A stretch of 64,000 nucleotides of DNA from Escherichia coli (lineage in GTDB: Bacteria; Pseudomonadota; Gammaproteobacteria; Enterobacterales; Enterobacteriaceae), in the NCBI RefSeq assembly GCF_003790525.1, contig NZ_CP033636.1; one strand, 5' to 3'. Positions 3,951 to 62,946 of this stretch are shown here, one piece after another; position 1 is the first letter of the stretch, and every line of letters starts with the position of its first letter. The notes under the pieces were generated by a model. That model was given only the letters and a program-made list of their open reading frames with translations. It was not told where the DNA came from and made no database searches. The position numbers and the translations under genes were made by a program.

Positions 3951-4282
3951 TCCTACCATTGCATCCGGAAATTAAACGGGCAGGAACTGCACTGTATGTT
4001 CCGACCAAGCAGCTGCCCGTTACCCTTTTCTTTAGTGTAAAAAGACTGTCTCCGACAACCGGAAGTGACTCATGTCAAATAAATTATAAATCAATGATTT
4101 ATGCAGGCAGGGTGTTTGGCTGATCAGGGCAGAGTGATATAATGACGCTGGTGCTGGAGGCTTTTGCCCCAGCCAGCGGTAACACTGTTTGACTGTGGTA
4201 AAAGCAGAAAGCCCCGAGTAATTTTTCAATTAACCTGTACTGCACCCATTTTGTTGGACGATGAAATGGAATAGCCCCTGAT

Positions 4283-46713: not shown

Positions 46714-47533
46714 GGCACTGTTGCAAATAGTCGGTGGTGATAAACTTATCATCCCCTTTTGCTGATGGAGCTGCACATGAACCCATTCAAAGGCCGGCAT
46801 TTTCAGCGTGACATCATTCTGTGGGCCGTACGCTGGTACTGCAAATACGGCATCAGTTACCGTGAGCTGCAGGAGATGCTGGCTGAACGCGGAGTGAATG
46901 TCGATCACTCCACGATTTACCGCTGGGTTCAGCGTTATGCGCCTGAAATGGAAAAACGGCTGCGCTGGTACTGGCGTAACCCTTCCGATCTTTGCCCGTG
47001 GCACATGGATGAAACCTACGTGAAGGTCAATGGCCGCTGGGCGTATCTGTACCGGGCCGTCGACAGCCGGGGCCGCACTGTCGATTTTTATCTCTCCTCC
47101 CGTCGTAACAGCAAAGCTGCATACCGGTTTCTGGGTAAAATCCTCAACAACGTGAAGAAGTGGCAGATCCCACGATTCATCAACACGGATAAAGCGCCCG
47201 CCTATGGTCGCGCGCTTGCTCTGCTCAAACGCGAAGGCCGGTGCCCGTCTGACGTTGAACACCGACAGATTAAGTACCGGAACAACGTGATTGAATGCGA
47301 TCATGGCAAACTGAAACGGATAATCAACGCCACGCTGGGATTTAAATCCATGAAGACGGCTTACGCCACCATCAAAGGTATTGAGGTGATGCGTGCACTA
47401 CGCAAAGGCCAGGCCTCAGCATTTTATTATGGTGATCCCCTGGGCGAAATGCGCCTGGTAAGCAGAGTTTTTGAAATGTAAGGCCTTTGAATAAGACAAA
47501 AGGCTGCCTCATCGCTAACTTTGCAACAGTGCC
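46714..47533 (+). mobile_element. IS26 (820 bp), no flanking 8-bp target duplication
   Basis: 14-bp terminal repeats GGCACTGTTGCAAA / TTTGCAACAGTGCC; flanks CTTTGCGT versus GGCGAAGC differ. Confidence 0.95.
46777..47481 (+). CDS. tnpA: IS26 transposase Tnp26 (234 aa)
   Basis: MNPFKGRHFQRDIILWAVRWYCKYGISYRELQEM... recognised IS26 transposase. Confidence 0.95.
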   Translation: MNPFKGRHFQRDIILWAVRWYCKYGISYRELQEMLAERGVNVDHSTIYRWVQRYAPEMEKRLRWYWRNPSDLCPWHMDETYVKVNGRWAYLYRAVDSRGRTVDFYLSSRRNSKAAYRFLGKILNNVKKWQIPRFINTDKAPAYGRALALLKREGRCPSDVEHRQIKYRNNVIECDHGKLKRIINATLGFKSMKTAYATIKGIEVMRALRKGQASAFYYGDPLGEMRLVSRVFEM

Positions 47534-57535: not shown

Positions 57536-57572
57536 GATAGTTTCGTCCTTGCCTCAAAAACCATGTTTGGTA

Positions 57573-58436
57573 TTATACTCCATATCTCTCCGGTGCAGGA
57601 ATAGCCTTTTCTGATGCACGGCTAACAGCTTCCCATTCTTCCCAGGTAGCCATCCGTGCTTTTAAGGTATCCATCGCCAAATCGTATACCATGCTGCCAA
57701 GGATAAGCCTCAAAGGCGGATTATTGCTGGCTACTAATTTCATAAGGGCTTCCGCTGCCAAGGAAGGATCACTATCGACCGAATCTTCGGAATACTGTTT
57801 CGCCAGCTCATCGCGCAGTGTACCGTATGAATCTAATGGATTGCTGTAACTCATCGAAGTGTATAAATCTGTCCAATATCCTCCTGGTTCCACCATAGTG
57901 AGTTTCACTCCGAAATGTTCCGCTTCTTTTGCTAAGGCTTCACTCATTCCTTCCAGCGCAAATTTACTTGCACTGTAAATACCAGACATCGGACCCGAGA
58001 TAATAGCGCCAATGCTTGTAATCTGTATGATATGTCCAGAACGCTGCGACCTCAAATAGGGCATCACTGCCTGACAAACCCAAAGAGCTCCAAAAAAGTT
58101 TGTGTCCATTAGTTTCCGAGCATCGGATTCGTTTAGTTCTTCAATCATACCCATAGTCATGATACCCGCATTATTAACAACAATATCAAGCCTACCGAAA
58201 TGTTTAACTGCTGTTTCAACCGTAGAAAAAACAGCCTCCCTATCTGTAACATCGAGGTTTAATGGCAGTAAGCTCTCTTGATATGTTTCTTCTAGCTTCG
58301 CCAAATTATCGATAGTCCTTGCAACTGCAACAACTTTATCCCCGGCTTTCAAGGCGGCGCATGTAAAAGCATAGCCAAGCCCCTTGCTTGCTCCGGTAAT
58401 AAACCATACTCTTTTATTTTCGCTATTAGGTATCAT
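57573..58436 (-). CDS. short-chain dehydrogenase/reductase (SDR) family protein (287 aa)
   Basis: TGASKGLG cofactor motif, NNAG, and S-x(n)-YSASK catalytic motif. Confidence 0.7.
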   Translation of the reverse strand: MIPNSENKRVWFITGASKGLGYAFTCAALKAGDKVVAVARTIDNLAKLEETYQESLLPLNLDVTDREAVFSTVETAVKHFGRLDIVVNNAGIMTMGMIEELNESDARKLMDTNFFGALWVCQAVMPYLRSQRSGHIIQITSIGAIISGPMSGIYSASKFALEGMSEALAKEAEHFGVKLTMVEPGGYWTDLYTSMSYSNPLDSYGTLRDELAKQYSEDSVDSDPSLAAEALMKLVASNNPPLRLILGSMVYDLAMDTLKARMATWEEWEAVSRASEKAIPAPERYGV

Positions 58437-58581: not shown

Positions 58582-58841
58582 TCAGTCCACTTGCGGTTTC
58601 ATTGTTACTTTGTCATAGCGTCGTGTCAGAATGCGGCAGAGAACAGCGTTTACTATCAACGCAACACCAGACCAGAAAAACCATGTATTAACACCTATAA
58701 CCTCAACAACCGGACCTGCAACAAGTAAGCCTATCGGCATAGAAAGAGTCATGGCGGTCATCAAAAGGGAAAACACCTTGCCCATCATTTCAGGGGCAAT
58801 GCTTTCTTGAACATAAGCCATAACAGGAACATTCATAAATG
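58582..58841 (-). pseudogene. mef(B): 3-prime fragment of macrolide efflux MFS gene mef(B), truncated by IS26
   Basis: MFS C-terminal helices ...AYVQESIAPEMMGKVFSLLMTAMTLSMPIGLLVAGPVVEVIG...; frame runs into IS26 end at 58842. Confidence 0.5.
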
Positions 58842-59661
58842 GGCACTGTTGCAAAGTTAGCGATGAGGCAGCCTTTTGTCTTATTCAAAGGCCTTACATT
58901 TCAAAAACTCTGCTTACCAGGCGCATTTCGCCCAGGGGATCACCATAATAAAATGCTGAGGCCTGGCCTTTGCGTAGTGCACGCATCACCTCAATACCTT
59001 TGATGGTGGCGTAAGCCGTCTTCATGGATTTAAATCCCAGCGTGGCGTTGATTATCCGTTTCAGTTTGCCATGATCGCATTCAATCACGTTGTTCCGGTA
59101 CTTAATCTGTCGGTGTTCAACGTCAGACGGGCACCGGCCTTCGCGTTTGAGCAGAGCAAGCGCGCGACCATAGGCGGGCGCTTTATCCGTGTTGATGAAT
59201 CGTGGGATCTGCCACTTCTTCACGTTGTTGAGGATTTTACCCAGAAACCGGTATGCAGCTTTGCTGTTACGACGGGAGGAGAGATAAAAATCGACAGTGC
59301 GGCCCCGGCTGTCGACGGCCCGGTACAGATACGCCCAGCGGCCATTGACCTTCACGTAGGTTTCATCCATGTGCCACGGGCAAAGATCGGAAGGGTTACG
59401 CCAGTACCAGCGCAGCCGTTTTTCCATTTCAGGCGCATAACGCTGAACCCAGCGGTAAATCGTGGAGTGATCGACATTCACTCCGCGTTCAGCCAGCATC
59501 TCCTGCAGCTCACGGTAACTGATGCCGTATTTGCAGTACCAGCGTACGGCCCACAGAATGATGTCACGCTGAAAATGCCGGCCTTTGAATGGGTTCATGT
59601 GCAGCTCCATCAGCAAAAGGGGATGATAAGTTTATCACCACCGACTATTTGCAACAGTGCC
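58842..59661 (-). mobile_element. IS26 (820 bp), second copy, inverted relative to the first
   Basis: Terminal repeats GGCACTGTTGCAAA / TTTGCAACAGTGCC; internal sequence identical to first copy. Confidence 0.95.
58894..59598 (-). CDS. tnpA: IS26 transposase Tnp26
   Basis: Identical protein to first IS26 copy. Confidence 0.95.
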   Translation of the reverse strand: MNPFKGRHFQRDIILWAVRWYCKYGISYRELQEMLAERGVNVDHSTIYRWVQRYAPEMEKRLRWYWRNPSDLCPWHMDETYVKVNGRWAYLYRAVDSRGRTVDFYLSSRRNSKAAYRFLGKILNNVKKWQIPRFINTDKAPAYGRALALLKREGRCPSDVEHRQIKYRNNVIECDHGKLKRIINATLGFKSMKTAYATIKGIEVMRALRKGQASAFYYGDPLGEMRLVSRVFEM

Positions 59662-60435
59662 CAATACGAATGGCGAAAAGCCGAGCTCATCGGTCAGCTT
59701 CTCAACCTTGGGGTTACCCCCGGCGGTGTGCTGCTGGTCCACAGCTCCTTCCGTAGCGTCCGGCCCCTCGAAGATGGGCCACTTGGACTGATCGAGGCCC
59801 TGCGTGCTGCGCTGGGTCCGGGAGGGACGCTCGTCATGCCCTCGTGGTCAGGTCTGGACGACGAGCCGTTCGATCCTGCCACGTCGCCCGTTACACCGGA
59901 CCTTGGAGTTGTCTCTGACACATTCTGGCGCCTGCCAAATGTAAAGCGCAGCGCCCATCCATTTGCCTTTGCGGCAGCGGGGCCACAGGCAGAGCAGATC
60001 ATCTCTGATCCATTGCCCCTGCCACCTCACTCGCCTGCAAGCCCGGTCGCCCGTGTCCATGAACTCGATGGGCAGGTACTTCTCCTCGGCGTGGGACACG
60101 ATGCCAACACGACGCTGCATCTTGCCGAGTTGATGGCAAAGGTTCCCTATGGGGTGCCGAGACACTGCACCATTCTTCAGGATGGCAAGTTGGTACGCGT
60201 CGATTATCTCGAGAATGACCACTGCTGTGAGCGCTTTGCCTTGGCGGACAGGTGGCTCAAGGAGAAGAGCCTTCAGAAGGAAGGTCCAGTCGGTCATGCC
60301 TTTGCTCGGTTGATCCGCTCCCGCGACATTGTGGCGACAGCCCTGGGTCAACTGGGCCGAGATCCGTTGATCTTCCTGCATCCGCCAGAGGCGGGATGCG
60401 AAGAATGCGATGCCGCTCGCCAGTCGATTGGCTGA
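59662..60435 (+). CDS. aac(3)-IV: aminoglycoside N-acetyltransferase AAC(3)-IV (apramycin/gentamicin); annotated ATG replaced by the IS26 end
   Basis: Begins QYEWRKAELIGQLLNLGVTPGGVLLVHSS... right after IS26 terminal repeat; ends ...CEECDAARQSIG. Confidence 0.85.
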   Translation, partial: QYEWRKAELIGQLLNLGVTPGGVLLVHSSFRSVRPLEDGPLGLIEALRAALGPGGTLVMPSWSGLDDEPFDPATSPVTPDLGVVSDTFWRLPNVKRSAHPFAFAAAGPQAEQIISDPLPLPPHSPASPVARVHELDGQVLLLGVGHDANTTLHLAELMAKVPYGVPRHCTILQDGKLVRVDYLENDHCCERFALADRWLKEKSLQKEGPVGHAFARLIRSRDIVATALGQLGRDPLIFLHPPEAGCEECDAARQSIG

Positions 60436-60663: not shown

Positions 60664-61689
60664 ATGAAAAAGCCTGAACTCACCGCGACGTCTGTCGAGA
60701 AGTTTCTGATCGAAAAGTTCGACAGCGTCTCCGACCTGATGCAGCTCTCGGAGGGCGAAGAATCTCGTGCTTTCAGCTTCGATGTAGGAGGGCGTGGATA
60801 TGTCCTGCGGGTAAATAGCTGCGCCGATGGTTTCTACAAAGATCGTTATGTTTATCGGCACTTTGCATCGGCCGCGCTCCCGATTCCGGAAGTGCTTGAC
60901 ATTGGGGAATTCAGCGAGAGCCTGACCTATTGCATCTCCCGCCGTGCACAGGGTGTCACGTTGCAAGACCTGCCTGAAACCGAACTGCCCGCTGTTCTGC
61001 AGCCGGTCGCGGAGGCCATGGATGCGATCGCTGCGGCCGATCTTAGCCAGACGAGCGGGTTCGGCCCATTCGGACCGCAAGGAATCGGTCAATACACTAC
61101 ATGGCGTGATTTCATATGCGCGATTGCTGATCCCCATGTGTATCACTGGCAAACTGTGATGGACGACACCGTCAGTGCGTCCGTCGCGCAGGCTCTCGAT
61201 GAGCTGATGCTTTGGGCCGAGGACTGCCCCGAAGTCCGGCACCTCGTGCACGCGGATTTCGGCTCCAACAATGTCCTGACGGACAATGGCCGCATAACAG
61301 CGGTCATTGACTGGAGCGAGGCGATGTTCGGGGATTCCCAATACGAGGTCGCCAACATCTTCTTCTGGAGGCCGTGGTTGGCTTGTATGGAGCAGCAGAC
61401 GCGCTACTTCGAGCGGAGGCATCCGGAGCTTGCAGGATCGCCGCGGCTCCGGGCGTATATGCTCCGCATTGGTCTTGACCAACTCTATCAGAGCTTGGTT
61501 GACGGCAATTTCGATGATGCAGCTTGGGCGCAGGGTCGATGCGACGCAATCGTCCGATCCGGAGCCGGGACTGTCGGGCGTACACAAATCGCCCGCAGAA
61601 GCGCGGCCGTCTGGACCGATGGCTGTGTAGAAGTACTCGCCGATAGTGGAAACCGACGCCCCAGCACTCGTCCGAGGGCAAAGGAATAG
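60664..61689 (+). CDS. aph(4)-Ia: hygromycin B phosphotransferase Hph / APH(4)-Ia (341 aa)
   Basis: MKKPELTATSVEKFLIEKFDSVSDLMQLSEGEESRAFSFDVGGRGYVLRVNSCADGFYKDRYVYRHF... recognised Hph. Confidence 0.95.
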   Translation: MKKPELTATSVEKFLIEKFDSVSDLMQLSEGEESRAFSFDVGGRGYVLRVNSCADGFYKDRYVYRHFASAALPIPEVLDIGEFSESLTYCISRRAQGVTLQDLPETELPAVLQPVAEAMDAIAAADLSQTSGFGPFGPQGIGQYTTWRDFICAIADPHVYHWQTVMDDTVSASVAQALDELMLWAEDCPEVRHLVHADFGSNNVLTDNGRITAVIDWSEAMFGDSQYEVANIFFWRPWLACMEQQTRYFERRHPELAGSPRLRAYMLRIGLDQLYQSLVDGNFDDAAWAQGRCDAIVRSGAGTVGRTQIARRSAAVWTDGCVEVLADSGNRRPSTRPRAKE

Positions 61690-61694
61690 AGTAG

Positions 61695-62057
61695 ATGCCG
61701 ACCGAACAAGAGCTGATTTCGAGAACGCCTCAGCCAGCAACTCGCGCGAGCCTAGCAAGGCAAATGCGAGAGAACGGCCTTACGCTTGGTGGCACAGTTC
61801 TCGTCCACAGTTCGCTAAGCTCGCTCGGCTGGGTCGCGGGAGGGCCGGTCGCAGTGATTCAGGCCCTTCTGGATTGTGTTGGTCCCCAGGGCACGATTGT
61901 CATGCCCACGCACTCGGGTGATCTGACTGATCCCGCAGATTGGAGATCGCCGCCCGTGCCTGCCGATTGGGTGCAGATCTTGCGCAACGAGATGCCGGCA
62001 TACGATCCGCAAACCACACCAACTCGGAACATGGGTGCAGTGGCTGAATTGTTCCGG
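61695..62057 (+). pseudogene. 5-prime fragment of an AAC(3)-family acetyltransferase paralogue, truncated by IS6-family element
   Basis: TVLVHSSLSSLGWVAGGPVAVIQALLDCVGPQGTIVMPTHSGDL parallels AAC(3)-IV GVLLVHSSFRSV...GGTLVMPSWSGL; homology ends near the IS inverted repeat. Confidence 0.5.
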
Positions 62058-62946
62058 GCGTGTCGCAAACACTTTTGGAGGCAGCTATCACCCAGCCAAG
62101 GCCGGTATTTTCATGCTTTGTTAACCTTTTGCAGTCCGAAGAGGCGCGCAAGCAAATCATTCTGGTCATTGACGGTCCAGCCGCCTGAAAAGCCAAAGCC
62201 CTTCCGCAGCCACAGCATCGCCTCGAAACCCGCGATGGTTCGCCGCGCCGTGTTAAAGGATTGGAAACCGCCGATCTTCGGCATGTTCTTCTTCACCCGG
62301 AAATGGTCGCTCTCAATCCCCTGCTGGAGATGTTTGGTCACATAATGCACGGGATCGGGATGGAGAAGCCCATCATCAACCGACGTTTTGATCGTTGACG
62401 GGAAGGTGTTGGCCCCGTCCGTCCCAATCCTGTTCGGCGACAACAAGGGTTCATCTTTAAGCATCTTTCGGAAGAACCGCTTGGCAGCGTCGAGATCGCG
62501 CTTAGCGGTCAGCAGGAAATCCACCGGATTGCCATGCTTATCGATGGCTCGGTACAGATAGCGCCATTTGCCGCGGATCTTGACATAGGTCTCATCAATC
62601 CGGACCGAGCCGCAATGGGGTCGACGAAACTGCCGCAGCCGTTTCTCGATGACAGGTGCATAAGCCAATACCCAGCGGTTGATCGTGCTATGATCGACCT
62701 CGAAGCCCCGCTCGCGAAACATCTCTTCCAAGTCACGATAGCTGAGCGGGTAGCGCAAGTACCAGGCAACCGCCTGTACAATCAGCCAGGCCTCGAAATG
62801 CCTGCCCTTGAAATCATCCTTCGACTGGCGCTTCAGCTTTTCGGCAATGGTATTCAAAATCATCGGCTCGCTCCGCAATATCAGGAGCGGCAACTTCTCT
62901 CCCCATGGTCAACATCGAGTTAACCTGAAGAATTTGCGACAAGGCC
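62057..62946 (-). mobile_element. IS6-family insertion sequence distinct from IS26 (possibly ISEc59-like); ends approximate
   Basis: Imperfect terminal inverted repeats GGCGTGTCGCAAAC / ATTTGCGACAAGGCC; internal IS6-type transposase. Confidence 0.6.
62111..62893 (-). CDS. IS6-family transposase (true start probably the internal Met, about 250 aa)
   Basis: FKGRHFEAWLIVQAVAWYLRYPLSYRDLEEMFRERGFEVDHSTINRWV parallels the IS26 Tnp N-terminus; DDE core. Confidence 0.75.
   Translation of the reverse strand: MPLLILRSEPMILNTIAEKLKRQSKDDFKGRHFEAWLIVQAVAWYLRYPLSYRDLEEMFRERGFEVDHSTINRWVLAYAPVIEKRLRQFRRPHCGSVRIDETYVKIRGKWRYLYRAIDKHGNPVDFLLTAKRDLDAAKRFFRKMLKDEPLLSPNRIGTDGANTFPSTIKTSVDDGLLHPDPVHYVTKHLQQGIESDHFRVKKNMPKIGGFQSFNTARRTIAGFEAMLWLRKGFGFSGGWTVNDQNDLLARLFGLQKVNKA

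Follow-up and report, generated by a model that had tools for sequence, protein, structure and literature searches.

In the 64,000-nucleotide stretch of Escherichia coli DNA analyzed here (contig NZ_CP033636.1; hereafter the window), the apramycin-resistance gene aac(3)-IV abuts one end of the insertion sequence (IS) IS26 and lacks 53 bp that nearly all other records carry at this boundary. The sequence shows directly that the canonical arrangement has here lost its -10 box, its ribosome-binding site and its two start codons. This aac(3)-IV allele is probably strongly weakened or silent, and we predict that expression of the gene, and of hph downstream of it, is strongly reduced, probably to a sub-clinical level. 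We infer that any full-length active enzyme must start at an ATG located inside IS26 (position 59623). The reduction is predicted because the run of G residues that could serve as a Shine-Dalgarno sequence touches this ATG, an RNA hairpin covers it, and no promoter scoring above chance lies upstream.

What the canonical junction provides

The loss is best appreciated from the canonical junction. In pTBMCR421 (locus L002), 50 bp, GTTGATCGTGCTATGATCGACTGATGTCATCAGCGGTGGAGTGCAATGTC, separate this IS26 end from GTG CAA TAC GAA. The first-pass annotation had proposed a comparison with other IS26-aac(3)-IV junctions in the databases, and this comparison was informative: the 50-bp spacer and its GTG were found in 641 of the 651 PLSDB plasmids carrying this region and in all of the records from complete E. 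coli genomes (196/196), with the deletion shared by 2 of 650 plasmids and roughly 8 PLSDB plasmid records having neither junction. RefSeq/PGAP begins the 258-aa coding sequence (CDS) WP_001199192.1 at this GTG. The spacer presents an extended -10 box, TGcTATGAT, 18 nt past the TTGCAA hexamer of IS26, and the combination scores 11.1 bits in a position-weight scan, at the 99.999th percentile of sites in the region. A GGAG Shine-Dalgarno sequence lies 8-9 nt ahead of the GTG, and an in-frame ATG 27 nt before the GTG opens an alternative open reading frame (ORF) of 267 aa.

The promoter of the canonical junction is an IS26 hybrid, of which only the -10 half is gone in the window. The annotation had stated that the native promoter was gone; this holds for the loss of a working promoter, and needs correction as to what that promoter was. 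The same applies to the start codon, which it took to be an ATG: a start has been lost, but the reference start is GTG (WP_001199192.1), and the in-frame ATG upstream of it was lost as well. A 1984 paper by Brau, Pilz and Piepersberg (Mol Gen Genet 193:179) reportedly has the words "possible involvement of an IS140 element in its expression" in its title. Since IS140 is a synonym of IS26 (PMC7986276), the canonical arrangement is the one named in that title.

The canonical sequence also bears on where translation begins. At positions 3959-3973 of locus L002, the ATG of the 267-aa ORF begins 7 nt past TATGAT, at about the expected transcription start, so that the long form may be translated from a leaderless mRNA. 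Judged from the sequence, the 267-aa form might use such an mRNA while the GTG uses the GGAG. Minimum inhibitory concentrations (MICs) were equal for the 258-aa and the 267-aa version of AAC(3)-IV (PMC7504452).

A one-step deletion adjacent to IS26

Missing from the window are 53 bp (the 50-bp spacer plus GTG). They contain the -10 box and the point where transcription probably starts, together with the translation signals (the GTG start, its Shine-Dalgarno sequence and the alternative ATG). When these 53 bp are removed from the IncHI2 plasmid pNDM33-1 (NZ_MN915011.1), window and plasmid agree with 0 mismatches over 8.2 kb (3086 bp to the left, 820 bp of IS26 and 4339 bp to the right). The deletion begins precisely where IS26 ends, and the IS is intact to base 59661. 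The endpoints are unambiguous and show no microhomology; nor is there an 8-bp target-site duplication around IS26, whose flanks (TTCATAAATG and CAATACGAAT) are unrelated. Many other plasmids show the same order: truncated mef(B), then IS26, then the 53 bp, followed by aac(3)-IV and aph(4)-Ia. As only these 53 bp distinguish the window from pNDM33-1 over the 8.2 kb, a one-step IS26-adjacent deletion is, in our view and on this sequence comparison, established as the origin of the allele.

The progenitor would have carried the TTGCAA -35 hexamer of IS26, a spacer with TGcTATGAT, the transcription start, the optional ATG, GGAG and GTG, as pNDM33-1 does. The deletion would have taken the stretch from the base after the IS26 end through the G of GTG, probably when IS26 transposed replicatively in cis within the same molecule; the same product would result if a second IS26 had inserted and the two copies had then recombined. 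What remains of the ORF is, by chance of frame, joined to antisense IS26 sequence.

The IS26 copy itself has perfect terminal repeats of 14 bp, GGCACTGTTGCAAA. As tnp26 occupies the minus strand (59598 to 58894), the terminus at 59648-59661 is the left (transposase-proximal) one. pNDM33-1 has the identical copy at this site. It differs from standard IS26 by 3 nt, which results in the G184N variant of Tnp26. This variant (IS26-v1) was reported to be more active by Pong et al. 2019, as cited in PMC9019673, and we count its presence in support of an IS26-driven deletion.

The fusion frame and its product

The annotation placed the IS26 end at 59661 and let the gene continue from codon 2 (CAA TAC GAA), and both the sequence and the identity to PDB 6MN3 bear this out. 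From 59662, CAA TAC GAA TGG and the codons that follow encode Q2-G258 of AAC(3)-IVa, with 257/257 residues identical to PDB 6MN3. We also examined whether the native gene could begin at a downstream codon still present here, and it does not. The window holds no intact aac(3)-IV with its own start and expression signals, as the deleted stretch includes both the GTG and the alternative ATG, along with the -10 box and the Shine-Dalgarno sequence.

A survey of start codons indicates that the whole enzyme is retained only if translation starts at ATG 59623. This codon lies 13 codons ahead of Q2 with no stop between them, and the frame is open back to 58975. An in-frame ATG in IS26 had been noted by the annotation, with an extension of 11 residues; the ATG (59623-59625) is present and is the only whole-enzyme start, while the leader, MISLSPPTICNSA, amounts to 13 residues that replace Met1 and make a protein of 270 instead of 258 aa (+12). 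Before residue 60 the only internal in-frame starts are GTG 59728 (V24) and ATG 59836, and the survey found no in-frame TTG within aac(3)-IV.

The open frame extends far into the IS. On the strand antisense to tnp26, no stop occurs in the aac(3)-IV frame from 58975 to 60435 (+), and any initiation in that frame inside IS26 would therefore yield a full-length fusion. ORF finders list a 454-aa ORF at 59071-60435 that spans IS26 into the resistance gene; it is very likely an artefact of frame.

The fusion protein, if made, should work, and its fold is predicted to tolerate the leader. It scores 483.3 bits against NCBIfam NF033081 (AAC_3_IV; cut-off 420), and the Pfam domain Antibiotic_NAT (PF02522) covers residues 38-240 (E = 9e-54), starting at native L26. 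In an AlphaFold2 model (mean predicted local distance difference test score, pLDDT, 94.3) the leader is a low-confidence coil ahead of a helix at residues 19-29 (native 7-17). This N-terminal helix is kept in 35/35 aligned homologues and is included in the NCBIfam AAC_3_IV model, which takes in the protein from native residue 8. The N-terminal tails of close homologues vary, with 7-16 or more residues, and a separate 9-residue N-terminal leader on AAC(3)-IV left MICs unaffected (PMC7504452).

Promoter and translation-start signals left in the window

A consensus promoter scan of the plus strand gave no site upstream of or at the junction. The best plus-strand site upstream of ATG 59623 combines TTGCAG at 59531 with CAGAAT at 59554 (17-nt spacing), and its 6.6 bits equal the median best score of shuffled sequence. 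A second candidate inside IS26 (+), TTGATT-16-TGcCATGAT at 59048/59070, reaches 8.7 bits. Genes to the left of IS26 lie on the opposite strand, so that read-through from that side is unlikely. Between aac(3)-IV and hph the best promoter-like sequence has a 19-nt spacer and reaches 8.1 bits; hph, being without a strong promoter of its own, would weaken along with aac(3)-IV.

The strongest sigma-70-like plus-strand site in the 4.6 kb upstream is located at 57549-57576 (TTGCCT, 16 nt, TGnTATTAT; 11.7 bits). It lies between a GrpB-family gene and an SDR gene, is aimed at IS26/aac(3)-IV from about 2 kb away, and has a direction antisense to that of both the SDR gene and the remnant of mef(B). A complete plus-strand promoter inside IS26 or further upstream was considered and rejected, the IS26 sites being at chance level and the 57549 site being judged too remote.

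At the level of translation, the AAGGGG preceding ATG 59623 pairs with the anti-Shine-Dalgarno sequence (-6.6 kcal/mol) at a gap of 0 nt, compared with 8 nt at the canonical GTG. Initiation in E. coli is very inefficient when the Shine-Dalgarno spacing falls below about 4 nt. The predicted hairpin at 59619-59642 moreover buries both the G-run and the AUG.

How firmly silencing can be predicted

Several points weigh against a strongly weakened or silent allele. The weakening is predicted from sequence scoring only. With AAC(3)-IV supplied from a pBR322-origin plasmid at 0.009 relative promoter units, the apramycin MIC was 128 mg/L, versus 2 mg/L without it (PMC7504452); as so high an MIC is reached even from a very weak synthetic promoter, little expression may suffice. 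The allele is still intact in at least two species and on two plasmid types (the IncHI2-like window and IncFIB/HI1B in Klebsiella pneumoniae), a persistence that is compatible with retained function and no proof of it. The weak plus-strand promoter-like sites inside IS26 described above could be of use to it, and IS26-mediated amplification could offset low expression.

Some of these observations also support the strongest of the alternatives, a functional fusion, in which a cryptic outward promoter in the left part of IS26 would drive a 270-aa protein giving clinically relevant apramycin and gentamicin resistance, with hph co-transcribed. We regard it as unlikely, though a serious contender, and it owes this standing to the rise of the MIC from 2 to 128 mg/L at such low promoter strength. 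In its favor, no stop interrupts the frame and the entire enzyme is retained from ATG 59623, the enzyme tolerates N-terminal extensions and disorder is predicted for the leader, the two weak sites offer candidate promoters, and the allele is unmutated across several hosts. Against it, these candidate promoters are no better than shuffled sequence, and the Shine-Dalgarno-like run stands 0 nt from the ATG, with both inside a hairpin of -7.7 kcal/mol. The allele is also very rare compared with the canonical form. As to published work, a review credits IS26 with a -35 box only, unlike IS257 (PMC7986276), and we found no report of such a promoter or of IS26 antisense transcripts.

A broader version of this idea is that the left end of IS26 is a complete, hitherto undescribed outward expression module, in which a weak promoter opposing the 5' part of tnp26 is combined with the ATG at IS position 39 from the left end. 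We hold this to be doubtful. If it were true, any gene placed in frame behind the left inverted repeat would have the means to be both transcribed and translated, as a fusion to the leader; IS26 could rescue genes that its own adjacent deletions had trimmed at the 5' end, and aac(3)-IV and hph would stay active here although every native signal is gone.

A third alternative, close to what the annotation had put forward, is a new hybrid promoter made of TTGCAA and the new flank, with translation from the IS26 ATG or from an internal GTG or TTG. The hexamer is indeed in place (59649-59654) and is a documented outward -35 element (PMC7986276, PMC11156391); GTG 59728 shares the frame, and the Pfam domain does not start until after it, at native L26. 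Yet all spacings of 15-19 nt past TTGCAA were scanned (ATGGCG, TGGCGA, GGCGAA, GCGAAA and CGAAAA) and none offers a -10-like hexamer, the totals being -5 bits or lower versus +11.1 for the canonical site; a new hybrid promoter at the junction was rejected on this basis. A transcript driven by TTGCAA would begin near 59684, some 60 nt downstream of ATG 59623, and for this reason the proposals of an IS26 -35 and of an IS26 ATG exclude each other. An internal start fares no better. GTG 59728, the first in-frame start downstream of any TTGCAA transcript start, has a Shine-Dalgarno gap of 0 nt and, by starting at V24, would drop the helix kept in every aligned homologue and covered by the AAC_3_IV model; the TTG option falls away with the absence of any such codon in frame. 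We therefore consider the new hybrid promoter very improbable.

Occurrence of the deletion allele

The deletion junction occurs in two PLSDB plasmids, CP138816 and CP138824, both from K. pneumoniae of patients in Jinhua, China. It gave no match in 5,426 complete E. coli genomes (0 among the 196 records with the region), in GTDB representative genomes or in JGI metagenomes. NCBI already has the 270-aa fusion protein, both as AYW33769.1 from an E. coli plasmid and as an entry called [quoted passage not shown]. It is found in 8 contigs, compared with at least 1000 contigs for each of the 258-aa and 267-aa forms. The allele is present in databases and, as far as our searches show, undescribed in any paper: none was found on the carrier strains or accessions, nor on IS26 together with apramycin and a hybrid promoter. 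The search likewise turned up no apramycin, gentamicin or tobramycin MICs for any carrier.

Short-read assemblies are often broken or mis-joined at IS26 repeats, but a sequencing or assembly artefact is hardly credible here, since the identical junction is seen in the two complete K. pneumoniae plasmids and in a separate 2018 draft contig (RDDW01000079.1, one of the 8 contigs), and the K. pneumoniae IS26 copies differ from that of the window by 3 single-nucleotide polymorphisms, which makes the sequences independent.

These differences carry a second message. CP138816 and CP138824 have standard IS26 at the junction where the window has IS26-v1, indicating that the IS copy was exchanged since the deletion, or before. 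The two K. pneumoniae records are IncFIB/IncHI1B, and the window seems to belong to a multiresistance plasmid of the IncHI2 type; the deletion allele has thus moved between plasmid backbones.

Features of the window around the junction

Table 1. Positions of the features at and near the IS26-aac(3)-IV junction (window coordinates)
Feature	Position	Strand	Basis or remark
mef(B) remnant, truncated	58582..58841	-	at other end of IS26; flank unchanged relative to progenitor
IS26, complete, 820 bp, IS26-v1 type, Tnp26 G184N	58842..59661	-	left (tnp-proximal) end adjoins aac(3)-IV
tnp26 CDS, 234 aa, divergent from aac(3)-IV	58894..59598	-	same position annotated in CP138816
Predicted local RNA hairpin GGGG-A-UGAUA / UAUCA-CC-A-CC	59619..59642	+	-7.7 kcal/mol, 68% of ensemble, z-score -2.3
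In-frame ATG inside IS26, preceded by AAAAGGGG	59623..59625	+	used as start by RGI and NCBI
IS26::aac(3)-IV fusion ORF, 270 codons + stop	59623..60435	+	13-residue IS26 leader, then Q2-G258
IS26 terminal inverted repeat, outward reading TTTGCAACAGTGCC	59648..59661	+	final IS base is 59661
Outward-facing -35 hexamer TTGCAA, kept, -10 partner lost	59649..59654	+	sequence; role according to PMC7986276, PMC11156391
Deletion junction, 53 bp GTTGATCGTGCTATGATCGACTGATGTCATCAGCGGTGGAGTGCAATGTCGTG missing relative to canonical records	59661..59662	.	comparison with canonical records and pNDM33-1
aac(3)-IVa-derived part, codon 2 to stop	59662..60435	+	100% identity to PDB 6MN3; AMRFinderPlus calls these coordinates in CP138816
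First internal in-frame start candidate, GTG (V24)	59728..59730	+	at start of strand beta-1 in model, after conserved helix
aph(4)-Ia (hph, hygromycin B phosphotransferase)	60664..61689	+	downstream of aac(3)-IV, same strand

The window contains two IS26 copies (58842-59661 and 46714-47533) that are exact reverse complements of each other; the 3-nt signature of IS26-v1 (standard IS26 positions 459, 613 and 614) is present in both. Across 39001-59661, set against NZ_MN915011.1 and related IncHI2 plasmids, the window carries a class 1 integron region of the sul3 type (estX, cmlA1, sul3 and the truncated mef(B)) and closely resembles pNDM33-1.

Right after hph, at 61695-62072 (+), stands the beginning (~120 codons) of another AAC(3)-family gene, distinct from aac(3)-IV. 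Among NCBIfam models it is matched best by AAC_3 and AAC(3)-VIII, in both cases under the cut-off, and it is cut by an IS6-family element other than IS26 (transposase at 62111-62893, minus strand). This remnant is a constituent of the aac(3)-IV-hph module, which is conserved, and may be a clue to the organism from which the module came.

Consequences of the allele

The practical weight of the allele lies chiefly in genotype-based resistance prediction. Apramycin is in clinical development (PMC7504452), and aac(3)-IV was by far the most frequently annotated apramycin-resistance gene in clinical isolates (1,265, versus 2 each for apmA and npmA; Plattner et al., PMC7504452, Table S1). AMRFinderPlus and RGI score the present allele as a 100% identical AAC(3)-IVa, and NCBI lists the 270-aa fusion as an ordinary AAC(3)-IVa. 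If it is silent or weak, such calls would produce false "resistant" genotypes, and hygromycin B resistance through hph would probably be affected likewise. If it is still active, IS26 would supply more than a -35 box.

Comparison with known systems

The classical IS140/IS26::aac(3)-IV junction (pTBMCR421, pNDM33-1) is the nearest relative of the arrangement in the window. The IS26 end, its orientation and the TTGCAA hexamer are the same, the flanks are identical base for base, and the same aac(3)-IV-hph module ends at an IS6-family element; the window differs in being without the 53 bp that provide the -10 box, the transcription start, the ATG, the Shine-Dalgarno sequence and the GTG.

The IS26/In37 promoter of aac(6')-Ib-cr and blaOXA-1 (PMC11156391) likewise places IS26 directly upstream of an acetyltransferase operon and uses TTGCAA as its -35 element. 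That promoter needs its flanking -10 box, its start was mapped by 5' rapid amplification of cDNA ends (5'RACE), and a single base change in the -10 box led to a 4-fold change in protein. It has a CATAAT -10 box 17 nt downstream, the mapped start and an intact start codon, of which the window has none. In the same study, one isolate with a deletion across the aac(6')-Ib-cr start codon was susceptible (PMC11156391), and this isolate is the closer analogy to the allele of the window.

With respect to its origin, the allele agrees with IS26-adjacent deletions made by intramolecular replicative transposition (PMC7986276) in having its endpoint at the IS terminus, an intact IS, no target-site duplication and an unchanged opposite flank. 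The truncated mef(B) beside the same IS26 is an example of known IS26-adjacent truncation. Compared with other such deletions, this one is unusually short (53 bp) and leaves a CDS that is complete except for its start codon and in frame with an ATG of the IS.

The 267-aa ORF (WP_000093041.1; PMC7504452) is likewise an N-terminally extended and otherwise identical enzyme, whose leader, MSSAVECNV(V), is MIC-neutral. In contrast, the leader in the window, MISLSPPTICNSA, comes from antisense IS26, and its tolerance is a prediction; the predicted tryptic peptide is (M)ISLSPPTICNSAQYEWR. The IS6-family elements IS257/IS431 possess a complete outward promoter at their left end (PMC7986276). The window would resemble them if IS26 had one, but for IS26 none is on record, nor is any above chance seen here.

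The type of event is well known, as IS26 hybrid promoters and IS26-adjacent deletions are both documented. Whether the allele is silent or active, it is a clean natural one-step mutant lacking the -10 half of the 1984 hybrid promoter, with its exact progenitor on record.

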